A stretch of DNA of 64,000 nucleotides from Naegleria gruberi (Eukaryota). Position 1 is the stretch's first letter. Each line of letters opens with the position of its first letter. The translations under genes were made by a program, and so were the position numbers. A model generated the notes under the pieces. The model saw nothing but the letters and a program-made list of their open reading frames with translations. It was not told the origin of the DNA and ran no database searches. Location of the stretch: assembly GCA_000004985.1 (NCBI GenBank), contig GG738857.1; one strand, given 5' to 3'. Shown here piece by piece: positions 12,648 to 64,000 of this stretch.

Positions 12648-13050
12648 TACAAATTTCCTATCGGCCTATTGTTGTAGTCATCCATCACACGTTAATAAAA
12701 TCCCATCACAAAACACAAACCCAATCTTCGCCAAACATTTTTTTTAAAGTATAATAATTATAATAATTATTATAATTATTGACATTTAATTCCTTCTCGA
12801 TATATTATAATAATACCGATCACTTTCTAATTAAATTTTGATTTAAGGTCCTATCCACAAAAGACCTATATTCCGATCATTCATTTTCTTTTTGGACTAT
12901 TGCTAATACATGCATTTTTGTATGATAAAAGAGGGTCTACTTGTCTTACATTTTTTTAATTTAAATTTAAAAAGAATTTGAAAAATTAAGTAAGCGTTTT
13001 TTATTTGAAAGATTTTTTACCTTAATTTTGAACTTGTACTACAAATGTGC

Positions 13051-23500: not shown

Positions 23501-24056
23501 ATTCCTTTCATTACTCAATGATATAGCTAACGGAATGGAGTGGATGCACAAAAAAAATGTGTTACACAGAGATCTAACAGTCCATAATATTGTATTGCTA
23601 GAATATAAAGGAGAACAAGGACCATTCCTCAAAGCCAAGTTGATTGATTTCCATTTAAGTGTTTCCAAAGACTGGTCAGATGCTGAAGAGAAACTGAAAT
23701 TCCTACCTCTTGAAAAATTAATCAAATGTTCTCCTGAAGCCATTAATGACAAATCAAATTATCATTTCCCAAGTGACGTTTTCATGTTTGGGAATATACT
23801 ATGGGAAATATTGCACCGAGAGGAAATATATCATCGGCTCAAATTTAAACATGCCATTCAATTGATTTTACAGGGAAAACTAAAACCTGTAACTGTAAAA
23901 ATTGATTTAGAAGTTTTGAAAGTTTTGGAAAACTGTTGGAACCTTGATCCAGACCAAAGGCCTACATTTGAGAGCATAGTTAAGGAGCTTTCTTCTCTGC
24001 TTGAACATGAAAAGAAGAAACGAATGAGATACAACCATTTCAATGCCTTAAAGTAA
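20502..24056 (+). CDS. RNA-dependent RNA polymerase (eukaryotic cellular RDR/QDE-1 family) fused to a C-terminal protein-kinase-like (TKL-like, possibly pseudokinase) domain. 1184 aa, single exon
   Basis: RdRP hallmarks are FQVRIAGFKGMLTVYPD, VLVFRYPVLNINEIKMLTAKEP, and the catalytic SGDLDGDKYVVIWDE (DbDGD motif). The C-terminus carries GKGIHGEV, VAVKK, HRDLTVHNIVL, DFH (not DFG), SPE (not APE), DVFMFGNILWE, and DPDQRPTF. The true start may be M at about 20577 (MTFEYTYL). Confidence 0.85.
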   Translation: MLTGSRDSSSVAAVDQQDPRSQKQDMTFEYTYLIQALLNQNPKLNNSEFIQEFKKKLESFKEDIQSAYEFTVSFSNYLKKGKDGTLHELKSFKFLKVASHKQHSFFPKRFYVKAVGINNDSTTVYQLPKLIESNRVFRKFDLMDFIKVQFSENSKVLDMITILDKKFQVVGGSQSQIKKGSIYYYDISKLETGKTANSLMDKLGKFDNDFFKKISRQSLNFTPTVRICTLKKDDIVEEDDTYAGNGSILSDGIGMISYSFAAEHLKNEKENLPTAFQVRIAGFKGMLTVYPDDMLKRKGVKKKVILRKSMKKFECNKDDKYDLEIVASTKEEPSPAYFNTQVFLLLYSRRMNFFSQKKIENYDYDVMKILKSHYGDVLPSIDRASFHSNPFLIDLLRSTLAKKRDNGNMLVTEGMTCYGLLDETKELKEKEVFVMLGNKHTKYAKPNTKFLKSGTKVLVFRYPVLNINEIKMLTAKEPINNLQLSTNDCAVVFSSVCAASDISGDLDGDKYVVIWDESLSLIGDNITKKIELKEKKKEDKEEQTEYEEIIPKTKVTPKTLSEAFTHLIIAQQYVGKIVTTWQNTIMNGRYTYLTESRKLAKQFQIAMDFPKTGILPNIDLLHSPPNSPLKTVRKRIDFMYNFLTPISDNSKVAKIPPDIKPIFDKYIAEMEHWKLVLGIDEVGVITRKSVFEPIQEKFSKQLEGKSVPMSLGSFSLLMKPSGKAKKSKYSSFKTILEGNFREFVEQYLKRIFNNGKEELKYLQNSLKEITNNQILWKYIAQKPNLYLILTYLIDRNNTMMKYEQFATDELVWSFIKYCILKEYLVHEDENQAVTYEKEEPNLEYLLVEFKKDNHFTTEIDKLIGFITDIPKMDIWYPRIKEVCEKVNVEYIPFSELLPLPNEKMLGKGIHGEVFPMMFRSKRVAVKKVEFIYPDTITGFLDELDLLAKLRGHENIAELYAVSLDGYNGFLIMEYCDYGLWNHYFNKQNKQKPKINFDKLQFLSLLNDIANGMEWMHKKNVLHRDLTVHNIVLLEYKGEQGPFLKAKLIDFHLSVSKDWSDAEEKLKFLPLEKLIKCSPEAINDKSNYHFPSDVFMFGNILWEILHREEIYHRLKFKHAIQLILQGKLKPVTVKIDLEVLKVLENCWNLDPDQRPTFESIVKELSSLLEHEKKKRMRYNHFNALK

Positions 24057-30014: not shown

Positions 30015-33014
30015 ATGTCATCCAAAACGAACCCCATTACTAGGCATATGCCATCATTATTAGCACACTATTTATTGTTATTATTCTTCTTTATTTTAAC
30101 ACTTTCGAATAGTTTAGTCTTGGGCGAAAGTTATAATGTTTATTCTTGGGGATTAAATATGGATGGTCAGACCGGAATGGACCTTCCAACAACACCCGGA
30201 AGCTTTGCAACTCCAACTTTAAATCAACACGTTTCTTCCTTGCTAGCGAATCCAAATTCTCTATACGAAAGTGTTTACAACATTGCGACGAAACCTTCAG
30301 ACATTACAATCTCGTTAAAAACCATCATTCCAGGATATAAATACAATCTCTATTGGTTCACATTCACGAATACCACCTCATCCGAAACTACTGACCAATT
30401 ATTTTCATGTGGAGATAATACAGACTATTGTTCTGGACTAAAGTCTCCCAAGTTTACAACAGAATTACAAGTAGTTTATGAATATTCAGCAACTTCTAAT
30501 AACAGATATTTGGATGGATCACTTTCTGGTAAGAAACTTGAAAGTGTTGATTGTATGGTTTCGTGTATTGCTTGTACGAAAGATGGTTTAGTCTTTGTTA
30601 GAGCTAGTTCACAAAAATGGGCATGGTATGCAGTTACTATTGATTCTGGATTGGTAGATGCCCAAGGAATCACAGTTTCGAATAAGTGCAAAAAGGTTTC
30701 GGTTGGTGGAACTTCCACCTCTGCTACCTATTTTGTAATGACAGATTCTGGACATTTATTCTCATGGGGAGAGTTTAACAGTGCAATGAGAGGATATGAT
30801 GATGCAGAATATTCAGGAACTGCTCCTCATTTAATTTCTACTGTTTTTGGAGCTTTCGAATTTGCAGTTCTTAAGGATTATGATATTCCAGTAAATGATG
30901 GGTTGGGAGTTTTGGGATATTTGAACGATACTGGATTATACTTGATTGGAAAAAATACGTATGGCCTCTTTGGAATTACAGTCGATGATTTGTTTTATTT
31001 AACTCCTTATTTGGCAATTGATAGTCAAGTTATTGGTTCCAAATTGAAAAAGATTGTTTTTGGTTATGCCAACGCTTTGGTTTTGGCAGAATCTGGAAAG
31101 GTTTATGCATTTGGAGGAAATGATTATGGTCAAGTCAATCCAAGTGGTTACGGCCCTTATCAGGAAAGTGTAGCTGAAATTAGTTCAGTTTCTGGATCTG
31201 TTGATTGTTTCTGCTCTGCTCATGCATGTGGTTGTAGGCAAACAGGTGGAAGTTTCAAAACTTGGGGATCTGATAAGGAGAGAGGATGGACAGGAGCTGC
31301 TTTGTTCGATTACATTAACTTTCCCGAGTCAAGCTCAACATTTTCCTTATTAACTAGGGGAGGATTTGCCATTTCGAATACAAATAAGCTCTATGCATGG
31401 GGTGATAATACGAATGGATACATGTGCTTGGGAGAAAAGTCAATTCAGATGACACCTAAATTACTTTTCAGCGCAAATTATCAATTGAAACAATTGGTGA
31501 GTGGAGAGGCCTGTTCTTATTCTCTCGGTGAGAGTGGAGGAGTTTCCATTGTAAACATGTGGGGAAATTGCACGAATGGATTGGGATTTGGAATTGCACC
31601 AAGTGGAGGATACTTGTTCCATAATTTAACAACTTTGGATAATAGTTTGCATTTACAAGGGTTGAAATATTCTCAATTGAGTATGTACAACCTGCATGCT
31701 GGTTTCCTATCGAGCTCTACACAACAGAAACCTTACATGATTGGTTATGGTGATAGTATGAGATTGGGAACTACTAATTTGAATGATTTGGATGTGTTAA
31801 CAAGTGTTGACACTACTGTTTTGGTAAATGAGGATATTGTTCAAGTTTCTGCTGGTTATGATCATACTGTCTATCTTACAAGAGGTGGTTACTTGATGGG
31901 TTCAGGTGACAATTCAAAAAGACAATTGGATCCTTTGGATGTATCTTATTCTGAATTGTTGAACATTAGTACAACAGTAATTCAGGAAGCAGGAGAACGA
32001 ATTGTTAAGGTAGTTGCAGGAAAACAGACAACATTTGTCCTGACAGATGCTGGTCATATTTGGGGAAAGGGATCAAATGAACAACAACAAATAAGCAAAA
32101 ATGGTCCTTCTCCAATTACTGAATTTCAACAACTTGATCCAACAACTAAAAATTTTACCAAATTGGCTGTAGGAACCTATCCAATCGCGTGTGAAGCTGG
32201 CGGGTTTGCATACAGATTCTCTGGGGACAATAAGGGTCCATGGCAATATTTCTATACCTATATGGAGTCTTGCTCTGATGTGTTTGCCAAAGATGACATT
32301 TATTACTTTATCACAAATGTTGGAAAGGTTTATGCAATTGGATCAAATTATTATAATCAAATCTCTACTGTCTATGGATTGGATGAAGTTACCCTTACTG
32401 CAAATATGATCTTCTCACCTGTAAAACTTGGTGGAATGCCTCGAATGATTGCTGTTGGAAATGGTTTCACAAGCATTGGTGTTGAAGTTCCTTCATATAC
32501 TTGTAATGGAAAGAATTTCTCAGATCCAACTGTGTGTAACGGAAAAGGTTATTGCATTTCCCAAAATCAGTGCCAATGTGAAAACTCCTATTGGACTGGA
32601 TCTGATTGCAGCACTCCAGTTTGTATTCCTGTGGAAGGAGGAGCAATTTGTAGTGGAAGAGGAGTGTGTATTGCACCAGATACCTGCAAATGCAATAGTG
32701 GATATTTTGGATCCAGATGTGAAACATATTATTGTTTTGGAATATTGCCAGATCCTTATGGAATGGCAACTACTAAACCTTGTAACAATAGAGGAAGTTG
32801 TAAAGGACCAGATACATGTGAATGTACCAGCAGTGAATATTATGGAGATGAGTGCCAATTTAAGAGGTGTTTCAGTGGAAATGGTGCATTCTTAAAGAGG
32901 AATTCATTAGCAGATCGCTTGTGTAATAAGATTAATTCACAAATATTGAATATTACCTATCCTATTCCCACTGGTGATATGTCTGGTACTCCTAATATTC
33001 CGAATAGAGGGTAA
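30015..33014 (+). CDS. Secreted protein with N-terminal RCC1-like beta-propeller repeats and C-terminal tenascin-type EGF repeats (999 aa)
   Basis: Signal peptide (LLAHYLLLLFFFILTLSNSLVLG). At least 9 repeats of the RCC1 kind (YSWGLNMDGQTG, VYAFGGNDYGQVN, LYAWGDNTNGYMCLG, YLMGSGDNSKRQLD, HIWGKGSNEQQQI, VYAIGSNYYNQI). The C-terminal Cys-rich repeats read CNGKGYCISQNQCQCENSYWTGSDC, CSGRGVCIAPDTCKCNSGYFGSRC, and CNNRGSCKGPDTCECTSSEYYGDEC. Confidence 0.8.
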   Translation: MSSKTNPITRHMPSLLAHYLLLLFFFILTLSNSLVLGESYNVYSWGLNMDGQTGMDLPTTPGSFATPTLNQHVSSLLANPNSLYESVYNIATKPSDITISLKTIIPGYKYNLYWFTFTNTTSSETTDQLFSCGDNTDYCSGLKSPKFTTELQVVYEYSATSNNRYLDGSLSGKKLESVDCMVSCIACTKDGLVFVRASSQKWAWYAVTIDSGLVDAQGITVSNKCKKVSVGGTSTSATYFVMTDSGHLFSWGEFNSAMRGYDDAEYSGTAPHLISTVFGAFEFAVLKDYDIPVNDGLGVLGYLNDTGLYLIGKNTYGLFGITVDDLFYLTPYLAIDSQVIGSKLKKIVFGYANALVLAESGKVYAFGGNDYGQVNPSGYGPYQESVAEISSVSGSVDCFCSAHACGCRQTGGSFKTWGSDKERGWTGAALFDYINFPESSSTFSLLTRGGFAISNTNKLYAWGDNTNGYMCLGEKSIQMTPKLLFSANYQLKQLVSGEACSYSLGESGGVSIVNMWGNCTNGLGFGIAPSGGYLFHNLTTLDNSLHLQGLKYSQLSMYNLHAGFLSSSTQQKPYMIGYGDSMRLGTTNLNDLDVLTSVDTTVLVNEDIVQVSAGYDHTVYLTRGGYLMGSGDNSKRQLDPLDVSYSELLNISTTVIQEAGERIVKVVAGKQTTFVLTDAGHIWGKGSNEQQQISKNGPSPITEFQQLDPTTKNFTKLAVGTYPIACEAGGFAYRFSGDNKGPWQYFYTYMESCSDVFAKDDIYYFITNVGKVYAIGSNYYNQISTVYGLDEVTLTANMIFSPVKLGGMPRMIAVGNGFTSIGVEVPSYTCNGKNFSDPTVCNGKGYCISQNQCQCENSYWTGSDCSTPVCIPVEGGAICSGRGVCIAPDTCKCNSGYFGSRCETYYCFGILPDPYGMATTKPCNNRGSCKGPDTCECTSSEYYGDECQFKRCFSGNGAFLKRNSLADRLCNKINSQILNITYPIPTGDMSGTPNIPNRG

Positions 33015-33082
33015 AGTTTTATTTAAATGTGTCCAATAAATATTTAAAATAAACTCTATCTTCCAATAAAGTAATAATAAAT

Positions 33083-34081
33083 TTACAATTTAGAATTATT
33101 CTTATAAGCAGAATAAATTCTTTGAGTGGCAACAAATTCACCTCCCTTTTCTAATTTGATTGGTGTTTGAATTTGACCAACTTCAACACAGACAAACTTT
33201 TCATAATCCTCTGGTTTCATATCAGCCATCTTTTTACACTTTTCTTGCCACAAATTCCACACCACTACATTTTGAGCAGTATTAGCTTGTTGATCAATGT
33301 GAATTTCTCTTGTAGTGTGTGAATCACCTGATTCATCAACAATAACACTACGAATATCATCCAACATGTCCAAATAAACTCTATCAACTTCTTCGGAAAT
33401 GACAATAGGTTCTGATGGTGCAATAATAGTTGCTGACTTGTTGATCTTATCTACATATTGTACATGATGGTGATTATTGTGAACACCATCAATATGAGCC
33501 TTTCTAATATCTCCAATTCTGAAATAATTGTGGAATGCAAAAGTGAAGGAACTAATAACATCCCAATTAGTTGATTGTCCATTAGTTGCATCCACAACCT
33601 TCAATGACATATCCAAATGATTATCAGTCAATGAAACAATTAAGAAAACATCCAATCCATCATAATCAGCCATCATTTTAGCAATATCCTTGTTTTGTCC
33701 TCTATAAGCTCCACTCTTGATCATTTTGAGTGTTCCTACACTTTCCAATGATCCAATCTTTTGATCAACAACTTCCCACAAGACATTTCTAGCAAATCCA
33801 TGACTCATCGAGAGAGGTCCTTTATCAGAAAATTGTGGGAAACAAATAGGAACACCTCCTCTGATGGCTTTATCAGTAGCAAAGATTGCCTTCTCACTGA
33901 CAAATATCACTTCATCATTTAAAGCTTCGGAAGAATTTGGTGATGTACAACGATAGCTTGTAAGATGAGCACCATGCAAATGAACATCACATTGGCTTTT
34001 ACCATTTGGACTGGTAATTCGCAACATTTTCCATTCGGAATTGAAAGGACTGGCAAGAGTTTCAACCTTTGAAGAGGACAT
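33083..34081 (-). CDS. Glucose-6-phosphate 1-epimerase (YMR099C-like aldose 1-epimerase family)
   Basis: Hallmark motifs GGVPICFPQF and HGFARNVLWEV plus the overall length of about 330 aa. Convergent with the upstream gene, 68 bp apart. Confidence 0.85.
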   Translation of the reverse strand: MSSSKVETLASPFNSEWKMLRITSPNGKSQCDVHLHGAHLTSYRCTSPNSSEALNDEVIFVSEKAIFATDKAIRGGVPICFPQFSDKGPLSMSHGFARNVLWEVVDQKIGSLESVGTLKMIKSGAYRGQNKDIAKMMADYDGLDVFLIVSLTDNHLDMSLKVVDATNGQSTNWDVISSFTFAFHNYFRIGDIRKAHIDGVHNNHHHVQYVDKINKSATIIAPSEPIVISEEVDRVYLDMLDDIRSVIVDESGDSHTTREIHIDQQANTAQNVVVWNLWQEKCKKMADMKPEDYEKFVCVEVGQIQTPIKLEKGGEFVATQRIYSAYKNNSKL

Positions 34082-34785
34082 GTTGAAGATGATGAGAGTT
34101 GTTGTGTTGATTATTTTTTTTAAATAAACATTAAATGATGAAAATTGATATTAATAAACAATTTCCTGATATGTGATTTAAGGAGGAGAATAAGAGGTGT
34201 TAATAAGCGCAGAATAATCCTTTCTATGTGGATGGAATAATAATAATATTAAATATAAAATTCAAGCAATAATAAATATTAATTTGTAGATGGAAGAAAT
34301 ATTACAATCAAGATCTGAAAGTAAATTGTTGTAATATTAGAAATTCCAAAACAATACCACATCATTCTTGTTTCATTCCTTTCCAATAAATCACTCCACG
34401 CTATGAGTCCGCCTCGATAAATCTCACTCCTACTTTTACCAATTTCCTTCGCAACAGGTCAAACTCCTCCATTCTACTCCTTCTTCATATGAAGAAGTGC
34501 AACAACATAAGAAGCTTCATAGGCAACCTTATTCTCTCAATAGCACACAAAAAAGATACAAAAGAGAGCACTCTCAATACAAAGTAAAATCCAATTTTCT
34601 CTTCTTCTTCTCTTACTCAAAAGGAATGAAGTGAAATTGTATGCAATTGTTCATCACCATGTATTGGAAGTTGTGTATTGTTTATCATAATACACTCTTT
34701 AAATCAAGAAACCAACAACTGTCACTGAAATAGTGTTATTTTAGCTAAACTTGTCAAGCAAAATTTCAAGTATCATTAAAAAAAA

Positions 34786-48112: not shown

Positions 48113-50583
48113 ATGACAAAAGTATCACCACTTCTAGATGAACAACAAAAAGATGCTGCCAATAAGAATCAGCAACACTCTGATATTAGTCAAGCTCTGA
48201 AACTCTTCTCTATCAAGACATGCTTGATATTCATGACAAGTATGCTTATTTTAATGAGGTTTGTACCCTATTCTTTATTGGTGTTAATCAATGATTTTGT
48301 AACCGACACAGTGTTGTAATTTTATCATCCATTTGGATTAGTTGCTTCAGTCCAACAGTTTCAGTCATCTCTTCCCAAGTAAGAGATGCAGAGTTCAATC
48401 GTATTGTATCCCACATTAAGCAAACCATGAATGAAGTGACCATGGTTTTAGAAACAGCCAAAGTTCAGATCGACAATCAAAGACCATTTCATTTGGATTC
48501 AACGTTGGAGCAATTGACTTATTCTTTGTACAGATCAGAAATATTGACCTTCCATCCTGATCTCATTCTAGCTATTTATATTGGCGAACCATTTGGATGG
48601 GAAGGTGGAATGCTACTCATTGGAAAAGATCACATGTATTTTGATTTAATTCGTGGTGTTGGTATTAGTTTGTATCCATGTAAAGACATTCAACTTGATT
48701 CATGTCAAAGAAACAATACTCCTTCAACCACATTTGCTTATTCTTCCAACGTTGTTTCGTATACTGCTTTGAAACGTCCTGGTGGTCCAGTATTTACTTT
48801 GAGTTATGCTGACAAGACCTTGCCATCAATTACATTCTTGACACTCATTACAAGTTATCCAAATCCAGCTGGATCAACAAATAATACCTATCCTTACTCA
48901 TTCCACCTTGGTTATGATATGAGTGTTGGTTCAGTTTCAAAGTATTTGACAAATTTTACATCAGCAATTTCAGGATCTAAGGCTTTTACAATTGAAATTG
49001 AAACTGGATATATTATCAGTTCTGATGTAGCAGATGCACGTGTTGCTGAATGGGATGCTAATGGAAAGGAATCTAGAAAGACTGCTCTGAATTTTGAAGA
49101 TCCAGAAACTGTTGAAATTGGAAAGATGGTCTATAATGCCTTTCCTGATTTTACTAAGATTCCATGCAACAGTGGAGCTGTTATTTCCGGATCAATGAGA
49201 TATGTCTCTGTCTATAGATATTGTACAGATACAAAGATCGATTGGTTGATTGTCTTTTCTGTACCTCAATGGAATTATATTGGAACAATGATAATTGCTA
49301 TTGTAATTGCTATTGGAAGTGGAGTTATCATTACATTGGTCTCAATTTTGATTGCAGTCTTGATGTCAGTAAGAATTGTGAAACCATTCCAAAACTTGAT
49401 AACTGCATTCGAAATGGTTGCCAACATGAAATTGGATGGTTTTTCAATTTCCAAGACTAGTTTTAAGGAAGTGAGAGTTTTACAATATCACTTTATGAAA
49501 ATGGTTTCCTCCATTGAAAAGTACAGAAGTTTCATTCCAGCTCACTTACTTTCAGAAATGGACGATGCAGAAGCTGCTGAAATTGAACATGATGATGCCA
49601 CTAGTATGTCAAGTGTATCAATGGCTGCTAGGTCTTTGCATCATGGACTTTCTGATAAATCAGTAAGAAACAGTATGAAGAAGGCTGCTGCCAGTCATGC
49701 CTCAATGGAAAAAGGCCACGTAAGAAATAGATTTGCACTCTATTTGGAAAAGAGAAAGGTTAGTGTTGCCTCTCTTAGAATAGAAGGATTGGGTAATTGG
49801 ATTAGCCACTTACATCACCAAGATGTTGTCAATTTGTTGAGTGATGTTTTCGAACAAATTACAATTGTAAATAAGACATCTGGAGGTCAAACAGGTCCAT
49901 TCGAGAATGCAACTATTTTAATTTACTTTAATGCAGCTAAGGATCAAGCAGATTATATTGAGAAAGCCATTTCAACAACTGCCAATCTCAATACTAAATT
50001 GGAGCAAATCAGAGAAAAAAAGTGGAAAGGAATGGAAACATTCAGACATAATAATCATATATTGAATCAACTCAAATTCAGATTAGCTTCATCGATCCAA
50101 GAAACAACTTGTGGTAATGTTGGTACCAAAGATGCAAAATCATTTACAGTACTCGGAAGTGTCAATTATAACTTGGAATCACTCTTGGAATGTGCCAGAG
50201 AATTGAACGTAAATGTTGTAATTTCAGAACCATTGAAAATAACTTGTAATTCCTACCATACCAGAATGATAGACTCGCGTAGCATTTGTGCAGATGAGGT
50301 TGTTGGAAAACCATGTGCAGATGAAGATTTACATTTTAATAAGGTCAACATATATGAAATTGGTGAACCAACCTCCATTGATAGTGATGAATGGATGTAT
50401 GAATTACAGCAACAAGAAAAGAAGGACAAGTGGAAGAAGTATAACGAAGCAACCAAAATGTATTTGGAAAATTGCTTCCCCGAGGCAACAATGTTGTTCA
50501 AGGAATATCTAGAGAAGAATCCAAACGATTTACCTGCAATGAATTTTATTGCAAAATGTTGTGAAATGGTAACTGAAATGTAA
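48113..50583 (+). CDS. Receptor-type membrane protein: TM1, extracellular sensor domain, TM2, juxtamembrane helix, degenerate class III nucleotidyl cyclase homology domain, C-terminal helical region. Two exons: 48113..48258 and 48312..50583 (53-nt intron GTTTGT...CGACACAG)
   Basis: Exon 1 gives MTKVSP...IKTCLIFMTSMLILM. Splicing yields ...S-VVILSSIWISCFSPTV, which is colinear with the downstream paralog. The cyclase-like block reads VSVASLRIEGLGNW...FRLASSIQETTCGNVGTKDAKSFTVLGSVNYNLESLLECARELNVNVVISEPL. It follows the class III pattern (FaDIvGFT ... RIGIhtGpvvaGviG ... GDtVNlASRMES ... IlVSe) but lacks the metal-binding Asp and the Arg. Confidence 0.75.
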
Positions 50584-51370: not shown

Positions 51371-53956
51371 ATGACAAGAATAACACCCATGTTCGGCATT
51401 GACTCCTCTCACAATGCAGGAATCTCCTTCACCAACAACAAGTATAAAGCAAATAACATCACCCCCGCCTCTAAGGAGGACAACAACAGTAATCTATCTA
51501 GTAATGAAGGAGAAGAAGCAGTGAATTTACAAGAAGAGAGACGATACCTATGTGGATCTATCAAGTTTTTGTTAATATTTCTCATTTCATTACTTCTTCT
51601 CATTTCAGTGTTCTTTTTATCAATTATTTGGATTAGTTGCTTTAGTTCGGCAGTTGTGGATTTAAGCTCTCGCATGAGAGCTCAGGAATTTGATAAAATC
51701 ATACAATTTACCAAGAAAACAGTTAATGATGTGCTGTTAGTGACAGAATCTGTCAAATCTCAACTATATTATGATTTTGATTTTAGTAACATGATTGAAC
51801 ATCACTTACATCGAGCTATGAAAGTTGCTCAAGCTAATTTACCCAATGTAACACAAGGAGTCTATGTTGGTGATCCATTTGGTGGATATTTTGGTTTTGC
51901 ACATTTGAGTGGTGAAATAACCTATTTCAATTTAACACCAAATTGTAATCAAGTTTACTTTGTTTGTAAAAATTTTGATACGAGTGAAAATTGTGATAGA
52001 GGAACAGAACCAGAATTTGTATTTCCTCCGTACACATCGAATTATGTAGCAGAGATGGCTTCGACGAATCCTGGCAATCCAGTTTTCACACTTTCCTATG
52101 TGGATCCATCACTTCCTTCTTTTGTATTCATGACAATGGTTTCGTCCATCAAGACTGGACAGCAGCCAATCAAGCCAGGAGCTTCATTTTCCTATTATTT
52201 TGCCTACGATATGACTGTCATGTCAGTTTCCACATTTTTGGTGGACATTACAACTTCAATACATGGGAGTTCTTCTTTTATTATTGAAACACAGTCGGAA
52301 TTTGTGATTGCAAGTGATCATCCTGAAGTGAGTGTGGCCATAGTGGATAAGGATGGAAATGTTGAAAGAAAAACAACTGCCACTTTTGGAGGACAAGTTA
52401 CCAAAATTGGAAAAATAGTTTATGATACTTTTGAAAAATTAACTTCAATTCCTTGCAATGAAGAACGAGTTTTATCATTGACAGAATCAGTAGTATCAAT
52501 TAAGAGATTTTGTTCAAAGGAAGGAATTGATTGGATTATCATATTAAGCGTTCCTCAATGGAATTATTTAGGATCGATGATTATTGCTATTGTTTCGGCA
52601 GTTGTTGGTTCCATACTCATAGTTTCTGTCGGTATTGTTGTGGCCATTATATTTTCACTCAAAATTGTGAGACCATTTGTTAATTTAATTAGTGCTTTCG
52701 AATGGGTTTCTCTAATGAAATTGGAAAATATCAATTTGTACAAGTCGTCATTTTCTGAAGTGAAAAGTTTACAGTTTCATTTCAAGGAAATGATTGAAAG
52801 GATTAAGTTGTACAGAAAATTTATTCCTCCTCATCTATTAGTTCAATTGGATGCTAATAATGTAAATCAACAAGAGGAAACATTTAAGAAAACTTCAAAT
52901 ACAGCTGAAACAAGTTTGAATGTAACTTCATCTTCGAAAAACAACAAATCCTACTCACAAAAAGAATCTAACCACGATGATCCTCAATCATCTGGTGATT
53001 TGAGGAGTAAGAATTCGAGTGGAGCAAATTCTGGACCAAATGCCAACATGTTTAGTTTATATTTGGATAAGAGACAAGTCACCTTATTGAATATTTATTT
53101 GGAAGGATTAAATGAGTGGTTTGTTGTGATAAATCCAACTGAAATAGTCACTATATTGAGTGAAATATATGATGTAATTGTCAAGCTGGTGAGATTGACA
53201 GGTCAAGTTGGGCAAATTGAAGACGAAACCATTCCAATACATTTAAACGCAACAAGTGATCAATCTCAACATGAATTGAAAGGTATTCAATTGTGTCACT
53301 CACTACTCTCCAAGCTTAATGCTTATAAGGAATCAAAATTGATGAATCATGCAATTGTTTCAAAATACGATGAGGAAGTTTTCGAAAATTTCAAGTTTCG
53401 TATTGTTGCCAATAGCCAGAGTGCATATTGTGGAAATTTGGGAACCAAACAAGCCATGTCCTTCTCCATAATTGGTAGTTCACAACACAACCTCAAAATC
53501 ATGACCATCCTCGCCAAAGAGCTTGATATTCCAATTTTAATCACCGAAGATTTATATGAAAAGGTGGAAAACAAATTCCAAGTAAGATATGTGGATACTG
53601 TCCAATTGGTCAATGATCAGCATTTCTCTAATCCATATTTCACTACCCACACTCGATCTAGACTCTACGATTCAATGAAAGTATTCGAATTGGGTGAAAT
53701 TAACACAGTTTCCCAAGATGAATGGATGTATGAATTAGATGCAAAGGAAAAGAAGAAGAATAGATGGAAAAAGTATAACGATGCTTGTTTCTTTTTCTTT
53801 GCCAGTAGATATGCAGAGGCCAGCAACATGTTGGAGGAATATTTGGATGAACTGATATCACCAACTGGAAAGCAAGATATTGTTGCTTTGAAATTACTTG
53901 ATAAGTGTAAGGATAGAGCTGCAGATTGTGTGGAAAGTTTTGAAAATTTCAAATGA
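51371..53956 (+). CDS. Tandem paralog of 48113..50583: a 2-TM receptor-type protein with a degenerate cyclase homology domain (861 aa, single exon)
   Basis: Colinear blocks are shared with the upstream gene: MT(K/R)..P N-terminus, TM1 IKFLLIFLISLLLLISVFFLSIIWISCF, PVFTLSYVDPSLPSFVFMT, and DWIIILSVPQWNYLGSMIIAIV...KIVRPFVNLISAFEWV. The cyclase-like block is VTLLNIYLEGLNEW...FRIVANSQSAYCGNLGTKQAMSFSIIGSSQHNLKIM. The C-terminal DEWMYEL...WKKYN motif is also shared. Confidence 0.8.
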   Translation: MTRITPMFGIDSSHNAGISFTNNKYKANNITPASKEDNNSNLSSNEGEEAVNLQEERRYLCGSIKFLLIFLISLLLLISVFFLSIIWISCFSSAVVDLSSRMRAQEFDKIIQFTKKTVNDVLLVTESVKSQLYYDFDFSNMIEHHLHRAMKVAQANLPNVTQGVYVGDPFGGYFGFAHLSGEITYFNLTPNCNQVYFVCKNFDTSENCDRGTEPEFVFPPYTSNYVAEMASTNPGNPVFTLSYVDPSLPSFVFMTMVSSIKTGQQPIKPGASFSYYFAYDMTVMSVSTFLVDITTSIHGSSSFIIETQSEFVIASDHPEVSVAIVDKDGNVERKTTATFGGQVTKIGKIVYDTFEKLTSIPCNEERVLSLTESVVSIKRFCSKEGIDWIIILSVPQWNYLGSMIIAIVSAVVGSILIVSVGIVVAIIFSLKIVRPFVNLISAFEWVSLMKLENINLYKSSFSEVKSLQFHFKEMIERIKLYRKFIPPHLLVQLDANNVNQQEETFKKTSNTAETSLNVTSSSKNNKSYSQKESNHDDPQSSGDLRSKNSSGANSGPNANMFSLYLDKRQVTLLNIYLEGLNEWFVVINPTEIVTILSEIYDVIVKLVRLTGQVGQIEDETIPIHLNATSDQSQHELKGIQLCHSLLSKLNAYKESKLMNHAIVSKYDEEVFENFKFRIVANSQSAYCGNLGTKQAMSFSIIGSSQHNLKIMTILAKELDIPILITEDLYEKVENKFQVRYVDTVQLVNDQHFSNPYFTTHTRSRLYDSMKVFELGEINTVSQDEWMYELDAKEKKKNRWKKYNDACFFFFASRYAEASNMLEEYLDELISPTGKQDIVALKLLDKCKDRAADCVESFENFK

Positions 53957-54062
53957 ATATAGGTTAATACTGATCATGATAAAAACAATTTGTACATTTA
54001 ATAACATAATAAACATTATGAATTGTTGTTTTATTGTTGTTTGATTTGTAATTATTCTATGA

Positions 54063-54625
54063 ATCAACTCTGGTAGCATGAAATATCGGAACTTGGTAAA
54101 TTGACAACATGACGAAAATCTGATAATAAATATGATGTTTATTATCTATTTAAATAGTAGTACTAAAAGACATGATTCAAGTTGGTGAAGTACATGTTGA
54201 GTTATGGTCCATGTACTTTTTCAAAATTCACATGTACCTATCCCTATCATAACTTGACCAAAATTGTAAGAGAAAGTTCTCTTACCTACTATTGACCATT
54301 CCGAACAATACTACATTGACAGTTTTCCAACTTGTCCAGTAGATCCAGCAGTGATGATGAATTTAGTGAAAATTTTGACATTTCACCAAAATTACATTAC
54401 TAAAAATTAATTTCCACAAATACTATTATTATATTGATGGAAAACAATAATGATGTTGGTGAATGATCCGATGATGGAACATAATCCACCAATAAAAATT
54501 ACTATTATTAATACTATATAGATCATGTTGAGATGATGATGTGAAAGTTTGGTGGTTTTATGATGTAAAACCACTCCAAAAATCATCATGTCCTCCTTGA
54601 GTAGAAGAATGTTGAATATTTTTTT
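54063..54625 (+). repeat. Dispersed repeat, copy A (about 560 bp). Same family as 57650..58290
   Basis: About 75-85 percent identity by eye over long stretches (for example tgataataaatat..tgtttattat.tatttaaatagtagt..aagacat...caagttggtgaagtacatgttgag.tatggtccatgtac). Contains no credible ORF. Confidence 0.7.
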
Positions 54626-54879
54626 TATGATGGGTTCAAAAATATTGGCAACAAACAGTCCATCGACTCGGTTGATTCTTGGAGTAGTTTCACCACAGCA
54701 TCTCTATATCACTGCTCTGGCAGAAATGGAAGAAGATTTGAATACAGACTCATCACAAGGGATAGGAAGGATTATATTAATATTAAATTGAAATTCAGAT
54801 TATTGGAATATTTTTGTACCGTGCATAGATGAATCAAGTATTTGTAAATTGATGAATATTGTTTTCTCTCCCTATCTGA

Positions 54880-55140
54880 ATCTATCATCATTTAAATAAT
54901 AGTAATTGTTGAAATTTAATCCTTCATCATGATTTGGAAATAATTTTATTATATCATCATCGTAACAACTACCAACCATCATTGTTATTTATCATCATTA
55001 TAATAGTAATATTTGTGGAAATAAATCTGATAGTAATATTTTAATTCAAATATTTTCACTAAAATCATCATCACTGCCAGATTTATATGATAATTTGGAA
55101 AACTTTCAATCTAGTATTGTTCTGCATCAACTACCTGTTT
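54880..55140 (-). repeat. Inverted partial copy of the same dispersed repeat family. A further fragment lies at about 55290..55370
   Basis: The reverse complement matches copy B at 58000..58170 (ccaaccatcattgttatttatcatcattataatagtaatatttgtggaaataaatctgat). Confidence 0.6.
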
Positions 55141-55594: not shown

Positions 55595-57063
55595 ATGTTA
55601 ACACGTTATTGCAACACCAGTAGCTATTCAACATGGTTAGTATTAGGGATGCTTGTTGCCTTTCTAATCGTCTTGCAACATTGTTCATCCAATGTTGATG
55701 GAGCAGCAACTTCAAATGGTACACTAAGGGAATGGCTCACCTCTTTGCAAAATGAAGCAGCTTCATTAGAACGCTCAGCTTTACAATTGGAAATGGCGAT
55801 TGCTTTGTTGACTAAGGCAAATTCAACAAGTACATCCCTTAGAGCTTCTCAACTTGCAAAGATTAGAAAGTCTATTGCCTTACTTGCAAGTGAAATTCAA
55901 ATCATCAACGAAACATGCTCTACATACACTGGTCAAAACTGTGATAATGCCGTCTGTAATTCAAAGTGTTTGAGCTGTTTTTCTAATAATAATTGTATCC
56001 AGTGTACTGGAAATTGGGATGGAAAAGAATGCTCAATTTGTAAAACTGGATGGGGTGGCTCTGATTGCAACACTCCAGTATGTGATTCTAAATGTAGTAT
56101 GTGCTCATCGCCAGGAGTTTGTTCTGCTTGCTATGGTAACTGGAATGGTGTTACTTGTTCAACATGTAATTTAGGATGGACTGGTGTTGATTGTAATACA
56201 CCAATTTGTGAAGTCAAGTGTAAGAACTGCTCTGCACCAGGTCAATGTTTAACATGTTCAGGTAATGGAATGGAAATGATTGTTCAACTTGCAAATCAGG
56301 ATGGACTGGTATTGATTGTAACACACCTATTTGCGATTCAAAATGTGTGAATTGTACTTTACCTGGTCAATGTAGTACATGTATTGGTAATTGGAATGGA
56401 ACATCTTGTTCAACATGCAGAATTGGCTGGAATGGAACTAATTGTACCACACCAGTATGTGATTCTAAATGTGCTAATTGTACATCACCAGGAGTTTGTT
56501 CTGTTTGCTCTGGAAACTGGAATGGAACAACTTGCTCTACTTGTAAGACTGGTTGGACAGGTTCTGATTGTAATACACCAATTTGTGACGCCAAATGTAC
56601 AACATGTGCCTCACCAGGTGTTTGTTTTGTATGTTCAGGAAACTGGAATGGAGCTACTTGTTCAACATGTAAAACTGGTTGGTCAGGTACCAGTTGTGCA
56701 ACACCAATTTGTGATGCCAAATGTACAACTTGTGCCTCACCAGGTGTTTGTTCTGTATGTTCTGGTAATTATGATGGTGCAACATGTTCCACTTGTAAAT
56801 CAGGATGGGGTGGCTCAACATGTTCAGTCTCGACAACATATACCATTTATGCTGGTGCTGACAATTCGTACACTCTCTACCATAATGGTGTTGCTATTCT
56901 GTCAGGAAGCACTTGGAGTTCTCCTCAAACAACTACAAGAGTATTGAATAGTGGTGATATTTTGATATCTAAAGGTTATGATTCTGATGGAATGGGAGGA
57001 CTCGTGGTTGAAGTTTACAACTCAAACAATGATTATTCAACTGGTAGAGTTACATGGTATTGA
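55595..57063 (+). pseudogene. Secreted tenascin-type EGF-repeat protein (about 12 near-identical 31-aa repeats) with a C-terminal non-repeat domain. A 1-bp frameshift lies at about 56268. Otherwise a continuous CDS
   Basis: Signal peptide LVLGMLVAFLIVLQHC. Repeats follow the pattern NTPxCDxKCxxCxSPGVCSxCxGNWNGxTCSTCKTGWTGSDC. At 56262-56275 the sequence ggtaatggaatgg replaces the ggtaattggaatgg found in every other repeat, which splits the ORF into 55595..56350 and 56347..57063. TGA at 57061-57063 lies directly before a 49-N gap. Confidence 0.65.
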
Positions 57064-57065
57064 CN

Positions 57066-57114
57066 NNNNNNNNNNNNNNNNNNNNNNNNNNNNNNNNNNN
57101 NNNNNNNNNNNNNN
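57066..57114. other. Assembly gap (49 N)
   Basis: n-run. Confidence 1.
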
Positions 57115-57224
57115 TCAGAGAGGTTGGTGACGGCTTGGGATGATATTCAGATGAGGAATAAACTGATTGGCAACAAACTTGGAACGCTATAAACTTTGTG
57201 GAATGGATAATCCTTTGTTAACGT

Positions 57225-58616
57225 GTCATTTTCTCTCTGGTTTGGGATCCGCACATGAGCAGATCTTATCACTTATCATTGTGATATATAAATAGTCTAT
57301 GTGGCTCTTCCAAATAATCATAGCATGAATCCCTCCTCATTTCATTTAAAGAGGAATTATAATTATTTGGTGAATTACCTCTGGATATTTCTCAAAATTT
57401 CAAAATCTCGAATACACCATAAAACAGCAAACAATGAATAGAGTATCGACTATGTATTGCGTACATCCTGCCAAAACACTTTTCACCATAGGAGACAATG
57501 TAGGTGATATGAAATTTAAATAAAAACAGAAAAATCAAAATCTTCATGGTTTCAACGAAACAAGACGAAATAATTGATATGGTACATCTACAATAGTACT
57601 AATAAAAGTTTATTAATGTTTCAAGATGATTGGCTGTGTACTTTTGGCATGAATCATGATTGGTGACCATGAATAACCCGAAGTTGACAAAAAATACAAA
57701 ATGATGAAAAACTGATAATAAATATATTGTTTATTATGTATTTGAATAGTAGTGATGAAAGACATTTTCCAAGTTGGTGAAGTACATGTTGAGATATGGT
57801 CCATGTACATGTTGAAAATATACATGAACCTATCATCATGATAACCAATAGGAAAATGTTCGGAAGTGATTTTACCTGATGGAATCGACCATGCTGAACA
57901 ATACTAGATTGAAAGTTTTCCAAATTATCATGTGAATCTGGCAGTGATGATGATTTTAGTGAAAATATTAAATTTCACTAAAATAATACTATTATCAGAT
58001 TTATTTCCACAAATATTACTATTATAATGATGATAAATAACAATGATGATGGTTGGTAGTTGTTCCGATGATGATGTACCAACTTGAATTTTTCCAAATA
58101 ATAAAATTATTTCCAAATCATGATGAAGGATTGAATTCCAAAAATTACTATTAATAATATTATTTAAATGATGATGAGATGATGTGGTGAAATTCTTGGA
58201 GTTAATAGATGTGAAACTACTCCAAGAATCAACACAGGCATGATATACCTGATGTTGATATAATATTTTTAAGAAATATTTCAAAGTCCTTTCATTTTTC
58301 AAAAAAGGCAAGTGGTGAAAATTGGAATGGACCTTCACTGCCAAGAATTAAAATTGGAATGGCTACTGTGTGATTAATATTGGCGCATAACATGTGTTAA
58401 AAACACGAAGGTGTAATATTCTATATTTATTGAGATAATCAATAAAGTTTAGAATTTGTCAGAAAAACTTGCCCTGTCGCCAAGAATTCATATTTCCATA
58501 TTTGGGATCTGGACTTTTATAGTCTGGAAACATGCTAGATGTGTTCTATATTCAATAATCTATATGAAAATCAGAAGAAATAAAATTAACTCTTCAATTG
58601 AGCTTATTGATATTAC
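57225..58616 (+). repeat. Composite repeat X-Y-Z, copy 1. X is 57225..57303, Y is 58392..58470, Z is 58512..58616. X and Y are separated here by the insertion above
   Basis: X is tctctctggtttgggatccgcacatgagcagatcttat.... Y is catgtgttaaaaacacgaaggtgtaatattctata...ataatcaataaagtttagaatttgtcagaaaaacttg. Z is gacttttatagtctggaaacatgctagatgtgttctatattcaataatctat.... All three recur at 59545..60330. Confidence 0.7.
57304..58391 (+). mobile_element. Candidate about 1.09-kb insertion of a non-coding dispersed element (includes repeat copy B at 57650..58290) into another repeat. It is flanked by the 5-bp direct repeat ATGTG
   Basis: The host repeat is contiguous in its second copy (59545..59700: ...aatagtctgatctacATGTGGtaaaaacacgaagg). 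Here it is interrupted: aatagtctATGTGG|ctcttcc...1088 bp...gcgcataac|ATGTGTtaaaaacacgaagg. No terminal inverted repeats or ORF were seen. Confidence 0.45.
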
Positions 58617-59544
58617 TATATGTTTTCCCCGTATTTTTACAATGCTCCTTACAAAAAAGGAAATATTAAATTTAATACTTAGTGAAATAAAAATATTATT
58701 TATTATTCTTGTTCTAATTGATGTTTTCTACAAGATTCTGTTTTACTGAATATCAGTTATTTGTATTAACCAAGAAAACATGCTCGTCTTACTACCACAT
58801 ATGAAAATTTTGAAATCACTTTTCTCGATAACTAAAGAGCCAAATCCGTAACAAACTTGATATTATGATTGTTAACATAATTAATAATGACCATACGGTA
58901 TGTTTCTATAACATCCAGTGTTGTTATTGAGATATGCTTTGTTGAAGTTGAGTGAATTTGCTTAAGTAATAAATCGGTGTTATTGGCGCATCCAATTACC
59001 CCTACAGGTAAATCAGCTTTGGGAGCATTCCATGTTTTTTGGGAGCATCACAAAAATGCGCCGAGAACCTGACCACAGATATACTTAGTAGTACCGTTTG
59101 GTGGTTTAGTGTGTTTCTCGATCTAAATTCGAGTTTGAATATAATTTTTGTATATTTTCACAATTTATTTTGTTGCTATATGAGAATTGATTTTTTGTAT
59201 TTTATTTTTTTGATAAATTATTTGGTGAATATATATATATATATATATGTGAACAAAAATTATATTTATCTATGTTAGAAAAATCATTTCCCTTTTATTC
59301 TTCATCATGCTCCTCCTCATGTTTTTTACACATCCTGTCTTTATCAAATCCCATTCTCACTACATCCTTTTCATCATAATTCCTCGCAAATTCATTTATC
59401 TGTTCAGATAACATTTATTTACCCCTTAAAAGTGATTTTCCATTCTTCATTTTACATGAGTTTTTCGGTGATTTCTTGGTAAGAACTCTTTATTAGTAGA
59501 CTTTTTGTATTTCATTTTTTTCTGTGGGTTTGGTACCTGTCATT

Positions 59545-60330
59545 ATCTCTCTGGTTTGGGATCCGCACATGCTCAGATCTTATAGTTTATCAATGTGATG
59601 TATAATAGTCTGATCTACATGTGGTAAAAACACGAAGGTGTAATATTCTATATATATTGAGATAATCAATAAAGTTTAGTATTTGTCAGAAAAACTTGGG
59701 TTTGGTTAGGATTCAGAGTTGATTTATTTGGGTTATTTAAGAGATTACTTAGTGAAGATTCATATCATTGATTATATTTCTTATCATCTATTAATGATGT
59801 AAATTTGATGGTTTCATTTATTATATTGATAGATATTTAAAGGTCAGGTCAGAACTAACTTTTGAAATATGGACTTTGAGAATTCAAATGTTTGGGACGT
59901 GAATCTACTCATTAGATTGAATAGGTATTGCTAATAAAGGAACATTTCATTGATTTATTGATCATAACGGTCAAATTGAGTTGAATGGAAGTGAATCACA
60001 TGTTGATTAATCGTGGATGGGTAGTTTCGCCACGTAGTGGTGCAACTACCAACCTTTGTAGATTGAATCAGGTTGATTTGAATGCAATAGATTCTTCTCC
60101 AATTCAATGATCAATATTCATTATTCGGTTTGATTTCAATAGCTTGCTCAACAAGCTTTGAATTAATATTCCAGTAATTAACGGCAGTCTATTTTTAAAT
60201 TTAATCAAAGACCATATATAGCATCTTGACTTTTAAAATCTGGAAACTATCTAGTGTGTTCTATATTGAATAATCTATTTGAAAATGAGAAGAATTAACT
60301 CTTCTATTGAGTTTTATTGGTATTGCAAGG
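59545..60330 (+). repeat. Composite repeat X-Y-Z, copy 2. X and Y are contiguous at 59545..59700. Z lies at 60222..60330 after about 520 bp of unrelated sequence
   Basis: See copy 1. X and Y adjacent here define the empty site for the insertion at 57304..58391. Confidence 0.7.
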
Positions 60331-60929
60331 TATTACGATTATAATAATCTACACAGAAATCACTCTTGAAATATAAACTGTACTAAAATGTATGAGAAAC
60401 ATAATGGTGGTAGAATTAATCAATAAATCGTTGAAATGACTGAGATGGAATGTAAACTATGGTCTATTTGTCATGTAATGGTGACTAGACAGTGTCAATT
60501 TCATCAAATTATTTCAAACTGATTACATTCAATAAAAAACCGTTCTATACATCAAACATGTCATATAGAATGAGTTTCAATATTTAATATTATGAACTGA
60601 CTCTGTTGGATACCATCTCTATAAATATAACAAGATGAAAAGTGTCAACATTCAATTTCACATGCATGTTACAATGGAGAGTCATCACTATATCATCTAG
60701 ATAGGTAATATTTCAAGTTCCAGCGGAATTGACAGTCTAGATATTGAGATGTGCATACTAAGGTTATAGAAGTGTCACCTTCACTGATTACTGACATGAA
60801 TATAACAATTGATTTTATGATTATTGTATAATTAATTCATTATTCAATGATTTTGATATGATGGTAAAATTTAATTTTGAAATTAAGATTGTTCCCTATT
60901 GATTACCTTAGATGTTCCTTAGTTGACTT

Positions 60930-61160
60930 GAAGATACTGAGCCATCAATATGAAACTCTCACAGATTGTTCTCCTCATCAAGAGGAGTGTATTCATATTT
61001 GATACTTGTATGATATTTTGTAAAATGAATGAGATGGAGTATATTCTATATGTTGAAATGTGACAATTTGACAGATTGTTATTATTATCATACTGAATTC
61101 AACTCTAATAGACTTAAATTGATACCATATGTATAAAAGTGTGATTAAATGTATCTGGTA
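60930..61160 (+). repeat. Repeat W, copy 1. It recurs at 63640..63840 (spacing about 2.7 kb), which suggests a higher-order tandem unit
   Basis: Shared blocks are ctcacagattgttct.c.catcaagag...attcatat.tgata.ttgt...aatgaatgag.tggagt and aaattgataccatatgta.aa.agtgtgatta. Confidence 0.5.
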
Positions 61161-61284
61161 AAGTTACATGATGGTTGGTTATACTTTCATTGAGATAGAG
61201 TGTACACTTGGATATAAGCACTTTTGACATTGAACATTAACTGACTTACTAATTGTAAGTAATACGAATTGTTTCCAAACTATT

Positions 61285-61516
61285 NNNNNNNNNNNNNNNN
61301 NNNNNNNNNNNNNNNNNNNNNNNNNNNNNNNNNNNNNNNNNNNNNNNNNNNNNNNNNNNNNNNNNNNNNNNNNNNNNNNNNNNNNNNNNNNNNNNNNNNN
61401 NNNNNNNNNNNNNNNNNNNNNNNNNNNNNNNNNNNNNNNNNNNNNNNNNNNNNNNNNNNNNNNNNNNNNNNNNNNNNNNNNNNNNNNNNNNNNNNNNNNN
61501 NNNNNNNNNNNNNNNN
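61285..61516. other. Assembly gap (232 N)
   Basis: n-run. Confidence 1.
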
Positions 61517-62285
61517 GGAAGAAATCTTTAAATATGAATGTGAAAATAAACTTGATATTCTATCTCTACACATCGAATGGAGCATTTTCATGTATAATTT
61601 GTTGATTGAAGTGATATATTTGATAGACTTGGTCTTGACTTGTGTTTCCTTTCAGTCAACTTTGGAAAATAAACATTTACATTCCCATTGTACCATTTCT
61701 AATTCTTATGATATGAAATTGAATTCTATATCACTATAGATCATATAAATCATTTTGGTAAAGTTTCAATAGGTGGTCCTTTTTCAAGATTTCCGTCCTT
61801 ATCATACAAGTGGACCATGTGTGGTTGAGGGAAGAAATCTTTAAATATGAAAGTTAAAATAAATTTGATATTCGATGTTTACTCATCAAATGGAACATTT
61901 TCATGTCAGGATTCAATATGTTTTGATGAGAAACTCAAAAGTTATAGTTGACCTCTTTTACCTCACAACTTCCCTTTTCACTTGATACTTTTATATCTAC
62001 AGACTTGAAATTTTGAAATTTCATATGAGAGTGATTATAAATGTTGTTAATGATGATATAGACTATATAATCTCATTAAAGGATTTTGAAATTATTATCC
62101 TTCCTATGGTTTCATTTTACAAATTTTTAATCTTACATTATTTACAATGTTAATATTTTATAAATTGAAAAACTAAATATAATACATTATTCTACTCATC
62201 ATTTACAATCGAATGATATAATATTCAATAATTTGGGCTAGGGTTTGATCTTTGAAACATTGGGTCTGGACTTAAATATTTTTCA

Positions 62286-62699
62286 GGTTTTAGGTTTGGG
62301 TTTAGGTTTGGGTTTTTAGGTTTGGGTTTGGGTTTGGGTTTGGGTTTGGGTTTGGGTTGGGTTTGGGTTTGGGTTTGGGTTTGGGTTTGGGTTTGGGTTT
62401 GGGTTTGGGTTTGGGTTTGGGTTTGGGTTTGGGTTTGGGTTTGGGTTTGGGTTTGGGTTTGGGTTTGGGTTTGGGTTTGGGTTTGGGTTTGGGTTTGGGT
62501 TTGGGTTTGGGTTTGGGTTTGGGTTTGGGTTTGGGTTTGGGTTTGGGTTTGGGTTTGGGTTTGGGTTTGGGTTTGGGTTTGGGTTTGGGTTTGGGTTTGG
62601 GTTTGGGTTTGGGTTTGGGTTTGGGTTTGGGTTTGGGTTTGGGTTTGGGTTTGGGTTTGGGTTTGGGTTTGGGTTTGGGTTTGGGTTTGGGTTTGGGTT
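62286..62699 (+). repeat. Telomere-like hexamer microsatellite (TTTGGG)n. It is imperfect at its 5-prime end (ggttttaggtttgggtttaggtttgggttttt) and then perfect for more than 60 units. It runs directly into a 50-N gap
   Basis: Direct read of the sequence. A second short copy starts at 63262 (gggctagggtttgaaggttgggtttgg). All ORFs predicted inside it (poly-GL, poly-PK, poly-TQ and similar) are artefacts. Confidence 0.9.
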
Positions 62700-62749
62700 N
62701 NNNNNNNNNNNNNNNNNNNNNNNNNNNNNNNNNNNNNNNNNNNNNNNNN
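62700..62749. other. Assembly gap (50 N) placed inside the hexamer array
   Basis: n-run. The true array length is unknown. Confidence 1.
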
Positions 62750-64000
62750 CATGTTGGTAAAGTTTCAATAGGTGGTCCTTTTTCAAGAGATTTCATCCTT
62801 TTGTCATAGTTGACCATGATGGTTGAGGGAAGAAATCTTTAAATATGAAAGTGAAAATAAATTTGATATTCGATGTTTACTCATCAAATGGAACATTTTC
62901 ATATTAGGATTCAATATGTTTTGATGAGAAACTCAAAAGTTATAGGTGACCTCTTTTACCTCACATCTTCCCTTTTCACTCGATACTTTTATATCTACAG
63001 ACTTGTAATATTGAAATTTTATATCAAACTGATTATGAATGTTGTTAATGACGATATAAATTATATAATCTCATTAAAGGATTTTGAAATTCTCATTCTT
63101 CCTATAGTTTCATTTTAGAAATTTTAATCTGACACTATTTACAAAGTTAATATTTTATAAATTGAAAAACTAAATATACCACGTTGTTCTACTCATACTT
63201 TCCAATCGAATGATATAAAATTTAATGATATATGAAGAAGTTTATAATTTTGGGCTAGGGTTTGAAGGTTGGGTTTGGAAACGTGTTGTTTTGATTTGTT
63301 TCTTCTGTGGCTCCATGGTCTTTATGATCTGATATAGGGTTATTAAGCGCCGTTTGGGTATTTTGTTGGTTTTTTTAGTAAAGTTTTAAAAAAAGTATAT
63401 AGTTCTTATCTAGTTATCGAGTTGTGGTGTAAATGTCTTGTTTTCAAGCTATTCGAAAGTAGTAACGATTTCGATATTCCGTTAGTTTGCGTCACTTTGC
63501 GGACGGACTTATATTCAATCAATTTGGTTGTCATTCATATTGATGCGTAGAATTTTTGAGAGTATTTTTGAATGTACGTTATTTTTATCTACGCATGAAT
63601 GAAAAGTACAACAATGATCAAGAGGAATTGAGTCATGAGTATGATACTTTCTCAGATTGTTCTACGCATCAAGAGTATTCGATTCAGGATTCTATTCATA
63701 TATGATATTTGTTATACATATATTGAATTGAATGAGCTGGAGTGCCATCTTGTTGTTAAAAGTTGAGTCGACATTAAGGTATTCAGTAAATTGATACCAC
63801 ATGACTAATTAGAGTGATTATACGTCATTATATCAATTTATTTGAAAACAGACTTGCTTTTGGACCTTTCAGATTTCTAGCCACATATGACAGATCACCA
63901 AGTACTATCTACTGGATGCATTTCTTGAAATAAAAGTATATAATTTGAATAAAGTCCACTTTATTTGAGATGTACTACATGATAATAAAGTTTATTTTGA

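Follow-up and report, generated by a model that had tools for sequence, protein, structure and literature searches.

Genes and gene-free DNA of the window

The stretch of DNA analysed in this study, hereafter the window, comprises 64,000 nucleotides of contig GG738857.1 from the Naegleria gruberi assembly GCA_000004985.1, and its open reading frames (ORFs) are long, intron-poor and in the standard genetic code. An SNF2/CHD1L-type ORF at 39090-41249 matches, along its whole length and with 100% identity, the NCBI entry 'predicted protein [Naegleria gruberi]' from a 573,072-bp scaffold; its next-best relatives come from N. lovaniensis (64%) and N. fowleri (60%), and a second ORF ranks the relatives alike. 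Several other loci were recorded along the way. One ORF of 1184 amino acids at 20502-24056 (+) carries an RNA-dependent RNA polymerase domain (PF05183, E 2.5e-68) and a C-terminal protein kinase (PF07714/PF00069), an unusual combination. Another single ORF, at 10494-12647 (-), contains DUF4116 repeats and a protein kinase domain, the DUF4116 repeats being encoded by a 75-bp tandem repeat of 4 copies at 12358-12662. Two adjacent ORFs of 718 and 861 amino acids, at 48427-50583 and 51371-53956 (both +), look like paralogues by eye, unaligned, and have no Pfam match at E<=0.001; they may belong to a lineage-specific family near the chromosome end. The EGF/laminin-type cysteine-repeat gene at 55595-57130 shows an internal tandem periodicity of 126 bp in Tandem Repeats Finder and is broken at 56347-56350 into two ORFs that overlap, perhaps owing to a change of frame or to a short intron, while its 3' end is uncertain because it adjoins a 50-N gap at 57065-57114. 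A dispersed non-coding repeat with 69-82% identity flanks this gene (55595-57063) on both sides, pairing 57582-58274 with 53992-54630 and 57891-58180 with 54880-55127, the latter inverted. Far from the array described below, a 2-kb Logan contig from run ERR1078381 is 98.6% identical to 32324-34303, intergenic DNA included, and this level of identity means that public reads of a very close N. gruberi strain or haplotype exist.

The last gene-like ORFs, those of the EGF-repeat protein, stop at about 57.06 kb, and about 7 kb of gene-free, AT-rich and duplicated DNA precedes and surrounds the array. From 57.1 kb on the GC content is down to 26-29%, compared with a window range of 29-37%, and no credible ORFs are present between 57.1 and 64 kb, where each ORF is either read from the array itself or is short AT-rich noise. 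No matches were obtained when the window was scanned for Rfam families and tRNAs. The proximal part of this zone (57115-60929; gene-free, 26-29% GC) consists of diverged duplicated modules, and self-comparison reveals three collinear pairs among them, 57214-57298 with 59529-59611, 58369-58471 with 59594-59698, and 58496-58614 with 60212-60324. Isolated TTTGGG hexamers outside the array were also counted. Between 57066 and 64000 the + strand has 10 (1.6 per kb) and the - strand 0, and the corresponding counts for the genic 57 kb are 19 and 10 (0.33 and 0.18 per kb), which brings the window totals to 29 and 10. The distal zone is about five times denser in isolated hexamers than the genic part, and they lie on the same strand as the array. 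The isolated + strand hexamers are suggestive of decayed, outward-oriented telomere relics across the distal zone, such as CTTGGGTTTGGTTAGG at 59695-59710.

The TTTGGG array and the elements around it

At 62289-62699 lies a period-6 array with the consensus TTTGGG, for which Tandem Repeats Finder, applied to the 64-kb window, reports 68.3 copies with 97% matches. Read unit after unit, its order is TTTTAGG TTTGGG TTTAGG TTTGGG TTTTTAGG (TTTGGG)6 TTGGG (TTTGGG)56, followed by 50 N. The tract measures 411 bp overall, with 336 bp as its longest perfect stretch. Five proximal units form the base, where three A-containing variants alternate with two TTTGGG units, and the distal 56 units are perfect. 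Apart from these variants and one TTGGG, the composition is pure TTTGGG, and TTGGGG units are absent. When the probe TTTGGGTTTGGG was scanned across the 64-kb window with up to 1 mismatch, all 65 matches fell on the + strand within 62289-62697, where 0.49 would be expected in shuffled sequence, and the array is the only run of at least two TTTGGG units in the 64 kb. Because every match of this two-unit probe falls in one + strand tract, TTTGGG is not a common microsatellite in the 64 kb; the original prediction had named the occurrence of the hexamer at many interstitial sites as evidence against its telomeric reading, and within the window the hexamer does not behave in this manner. The array is a real and statistically unambiguous feature that continues to the end of its own contig, although it is one array and not the several that had been predicted. 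Its G-rich strand is the + strand, which points 5' to 3' away from the genes and toward the right of the window. The array thus unites a short G-rich tandem motif that is the candidate telomere repeat of the species, an outward-oriented G strand and a gradient from degenerate to perfect units, all of which are characteristic of a telomere.

The layout of the contigs is important for interpretation of the array. The window contains six runs of N, of 1, 609, 50, 50, 232 and 50 bases, and because three of the six are exactly 50 N, this value appears to be a default or floor gap size in the assembly. The contig that bears the array is only 1183 bp long (61517-62699) and has a gap at either side. 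On its left is a gap of 232 N (61285-61516), so that position 61517, given as the start of the repeat in the original prediction, is merely the first base after a gap. On its right is a gap of 50 N (62700-62749), of the apparent default size. This gap had been placed inside the array; it marks instead the distal edge of the array, because the contig beyond it opens at once with the non-telomeric sequence CATGTTGGTAAAG and shows no TTTGGG repeats past the gap.

Comparison of the flanking DNA with itself identifies a set of repeated elements, all on the + strand. The array is borne by a telomere-associated element, B (61751-62288), which is 89-90% (89.4%) identical to a second copy, B' (62750-63247), that starts at the first base of its own contig. 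Immediately upstream of B is an old partial copy of the same element, A (61517-61750), which matches the inner part of both full copies (61830-62077 in B and 62828-63075 in B') with 66% identity. The long array is attached to B only, whereas B' terminates in a degenerate telomere-like relic of 30 nt, TTTTGGGCTAGGGTTTGAAGGTTGGGTTTGG (63248-63278), which follows B' just as the array follows B. This relic has non-telomeric DNA on both sides in continuous sequence within a contig and is in this sense interstitial. It is followed by a spacer, C (63279-63628), without a match elsewhere in the window or in the relative's contig described below, and then by a second copy of an X-Y module, X'-Y' (63629-64000), which reaches the end of the window. 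The first X-Y copy (60930-61284) forms the start of a long subtelomeric unit, and its segment 60938-61063 is 68% identical to 63629-63766; because X recurs in this way, the larger periodicity of the scaffold is about 2.7 kb.

These relationships do not amount to the tandem satellite with a unit of about 1 kb that had been proposed. Only two full copies (B and B', 89%) and one partial copy (A, 66%) are present, their contents differ, and the B-to-B' spacing of 998 bp in self-comparison includes the 50-N gap. The apparent satellite is largely the product of two diverged copies laid out on either side of this gap. Tandem Repeats Finder, whose longest period is 500, reported no long-period tandem array at the locus. 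The A and B elements contain no ORF, and a protein search with a chimeric peptide assembled from six stop-free translated pieces of the B/B' region, including the array-B junction and spacer C, returned 0 matches.

The same elements in a contig from a relative

A 22-mer common to A, B and B' was scanned against metagenome contigs and gave two matches. One of these lies inside a coding sequence and was discarded as a chance match. The other contig, VFQN01031297.1 (2627 bp; L003 hereafter), contains modules that are 82-94% identical to those of the window, and by this identity it belongs to a close relative of the sequenced strain. No tRNA was found in it. In the orientation of the window, the order in L003 is Y, a segment of about 0.37 kb ending in a leader, A, a copy of B, a relic, an unrelated spacer of about 1.1 kb and X. 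Its Y (2291-2512) is 82% identical to 63780-64000, and its X (positions 2-54) is 89% identical to 60930-60982. The leader that closes the 0.37-kb segment resembles the first ~80 nt of B. The A copy of L003 is 85.7% identical to 61517-61750 and likewise lies directly upstream of a B, which is itself 93.7% identical to B of the window and 91.4% identical to B'. The final ~57 nt of B (62232-62288), which start with TTTGGGCTAGGGTTTGA, are common to both contigs, and the junction that precedes the array is the same in L003, reading TTTGGGCTAGGGTTTGA.CTTTGAAA.ATTGGGTCTGG and continuing, but it is followed merely by GGTTTGGGTTTGG, a relic of about two units. As with the relic after B', this one is flanked on both sides by non-telomeric DNA in continuous sequence and is interstitial.

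Judged by sequence comparison, L003 supports several points about the organization of the locus. Because its B is nearest to the array-bearing B and has the same pre-array junction, the internal structure of the 1183-bp contig is validated, and its A|B and pre-array junctions are genuine. L003 also supports a canonical long unit of about 2.6 kb with the order X-Y-A-B-relic-spacer and one B per unit, and the placement of the small contig after X-Y agrees with this order. By analogy, the 232-N gap should conceal about 0.3-0.4 kb of sequence, with the leader of copy A in it. Finally, L003 supports the view that it is typical of the repeat family for B to end distally in a telomere-like relic. The DNA directly proximal to the telomere repeat is gene-poor and repeat-rich, as in a subtelomere, and its elements recur in the same order in a relative.

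Terminal and interstitial readings of the array

The motif itself has been proposed before. In a survey of 143 genome assemblies for minisatellites that are terminal and correctly oriented, Fulneckova et al. (2013, Genome Biol Evol, PMC3622300) put forward TTTGGG for N. gruberi as its candidate telomere repeat, on the basis of position and orientation in the assembly, and stated that experiments were still needed. The candidate and the present locus share the species, the motif and the genome assembly, and reasoning from position and orientation is used in both; the text of the survey gives the motif only and does not describe this locus, the A and B elements or the ~2.6-kb unit. A literature search for Naegleria telomeres or telomerase after the 2013 survey found nothing relevant and no Bal31, TRF or TRAP data. 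The original prediction held that the region is probably subtelomeric if TTTGGG is the real telomere repeat, and this holds up well, as the motif is the published N. gruberi candidate (PMC3622300) and the final 7 kb consist of duplicated DNA without genes. This part of the window has the anatomy expected of a subtelomere with the chromosome end to its right, and we are highly confident that the array is a telomeric repeat, by a motif that is so far a candidate, within this subtelomere. Nothing was found in support of the suggested ancient fusion or fragile site.

Two explanations would make the array something other than a Naegleria telomere repeat. It could be an ordinary expanded hexanucleotide microsatellite whose match to a telomere motif is coincidental, and the isolated TTTGGG hexamers throughout the window (29 on the + strand and 10 on the - strand), together with the two-unit seed at the same site in the relative, are what such a reading would draw on. 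However, a single run of at least two units occurs in 64 kb, the motif is the published N. gruberi candidate (PMC3622300), and the strand orientation, the degenerate-to-perfect gradient, the contig-end location and the gene-free duplicated surroundings are all consistent with a telomere, so we reject this explanation as very improbable. A contaminant or chimeric read, for example a ciliate macronuclear telomere joined to Naegleria DNA, might be considered in view of the telomeres of Paramecium, which mix TTGGGG and TTTGGG (PMC5855555). In that ciliate the same hexamer as in the array is one of two units mixed through telomerase stuttering, whereas the array in N. gruberi, a heterolobosean, is pure TTTGGG with A-containing variants at its base only and lacks TTGGGG. 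In addition, the array is continuous with element B inside one contig, and the independent contig of the relative shows the same pre-array junction after B. These findings effectively refute a contaminant origin.

A more difficult question is whether the array is terminal or truly internal, although the region is subtelomeric in either case. We favour, on balance and with some reservation, the explanation that the array is the N. gruberi telomere repeat, joined to the final element of a subtelomeric repeat, and we likewise lean somewhat toward a terminal array. According to the model that we prefer, telomerase would add TTTGGG at the 3' end of the chromosome, and the ~2.6-kb X-Y-A-B-relic-spacer unit would have been duplicated by unequal exchange or break-induced copying, with each relic marking a site of past or potential healing, or a remnant that moved inward as the units multiplied. 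The 1183-bp contig, A-B-(TTTGGG)n, would most likely be a real chromosome terminus, perhaps the last unit of the same chromosome just past the right end of the window after Y', which is where a simple terminal model puts it, given that in L003 Y is followed by about 0.37 kb and then by A-B; it might alternatively derive from a truncated homologue or another chromosome end. The scaffolder would then have slotted this contig into the gap ahead of B', and both the 'interstitial' position and the 1-kb period would therefore be products of assembly. Several features agree with a terminal array: the contig is gapped at either side, no TTTGGG lies to the right of the 50-N gap, and a gap of 50 N occurs three times in the window. 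Moreover, each unit in L003 has a single B, so that 'B-array' and 'B'-relic-C-X'' would seem to be two different ways of continuing X-Y-A and not neighbours. Against a terminal array, the assembly joins it to B', presumably via mate pairs, and B' starts exactly at the element boundary set by the A|B junction, as a true array-B' junction would look.

The alternative is that the chromosome does read X-Y-A-B-(TTTGGG)n-B'-relic-C-X'-Y' and onward, with a long internal telomere array between two tandem copies of the element and the real terminus further to the right, an arrangement that would resemble the tandem Y' elements of budding yeast. Such a tract could have come from a terminal tract that recombined with an internal relic, or from distal subtelomeric DNA that was copied onto a healed end. 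The scaffold order itself is the most direct argument for this arrangement, and the start of B' exactly at the element boundary is what would be expected if its contig merely could not extend into the array. The relics found within contigs at the same junction, after B' (63248-63278) and in L003, also indicate that telomere-like sequence becomes internal in this repeat family, and the array still has a rightward orientation. On the other side, no telomeric repeat lies to the right of the gap, and the gap is of apparent default size, yet a 411-bp array plus at most 50 bp should have been spanned by Sanger reads. An internal array would also leave B' without an X-Y-A of its own, whereas the unit of L003 has one B preceded by A, and the perfect distal repeats look freshly synthesized while the other internal relics have decayed. 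We therefore regard a true interstitial tract as possible but doubtful. The statement in the original prediction that the array is 'therefore not a chromosome end' depends solely on a scaffold join across an unsequenced gap whose far side is without telomeric repeats.

Comparable arrangements occur in other eukaryotes. The subtelomeres of budding yeast contain X and Y' elements, and internal tracts of telomere repeat lie between tandem copies of Y', which encodes a helicase. As in yeast, the N. gruberi locus shows tandem telomere-associated elements with short telomere-like tracts at their distal junctions in a gene-poor, recombination-prone setting. Unlike yeast Y', the A and B elements have no ORF and show no sequence or protein kinship to it, and a long internal tract is only a candidate here. 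Interstitial telomeric sequences also occur at the boundaries of subtelomeric duplications, for example in human subtelomeres. The relic at 63248-63278 and the two-unit relic of L003 resemble such tracts in being short, degenerate and outward-oriented and in ending duplicated blocks, but the 411-bp array is much longer and more homogeneous. The locus is in this sense ordinary and known in kind, an already-proposed N. gruberi telomere repeat in its own subtelomere.

The value of the locus lies mainly in annotation, since it marks the right part of the window as belonging to an N. gruberi chromosome-end region, and it flags a probable scaffolding artefact in the reference assembly. The A and B elements within the X-Y-A-B-relic-spacer unit are a concrete telomere-associated element that could be used as a probe or anchor for long-read Naegleria assemblies. 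The TTTGGG candidate of 2013 gains support at the level of sequence from within a contig, through the orientation of the array, its degenerate-to-perfect gradient and the conserved junction. Much more tentatively, and rather against our own preference for a terminal array, the chromosome ends of N. gruberi may contain telomere tracts that are long and perfect, set within tandem, non-coding subtelomeric units of about 2.6 kb, similar to Y'. Such an arrangement, if true, would point to recombination-driven subtelomere amplification or ALT-like copying in a heterolobosean.
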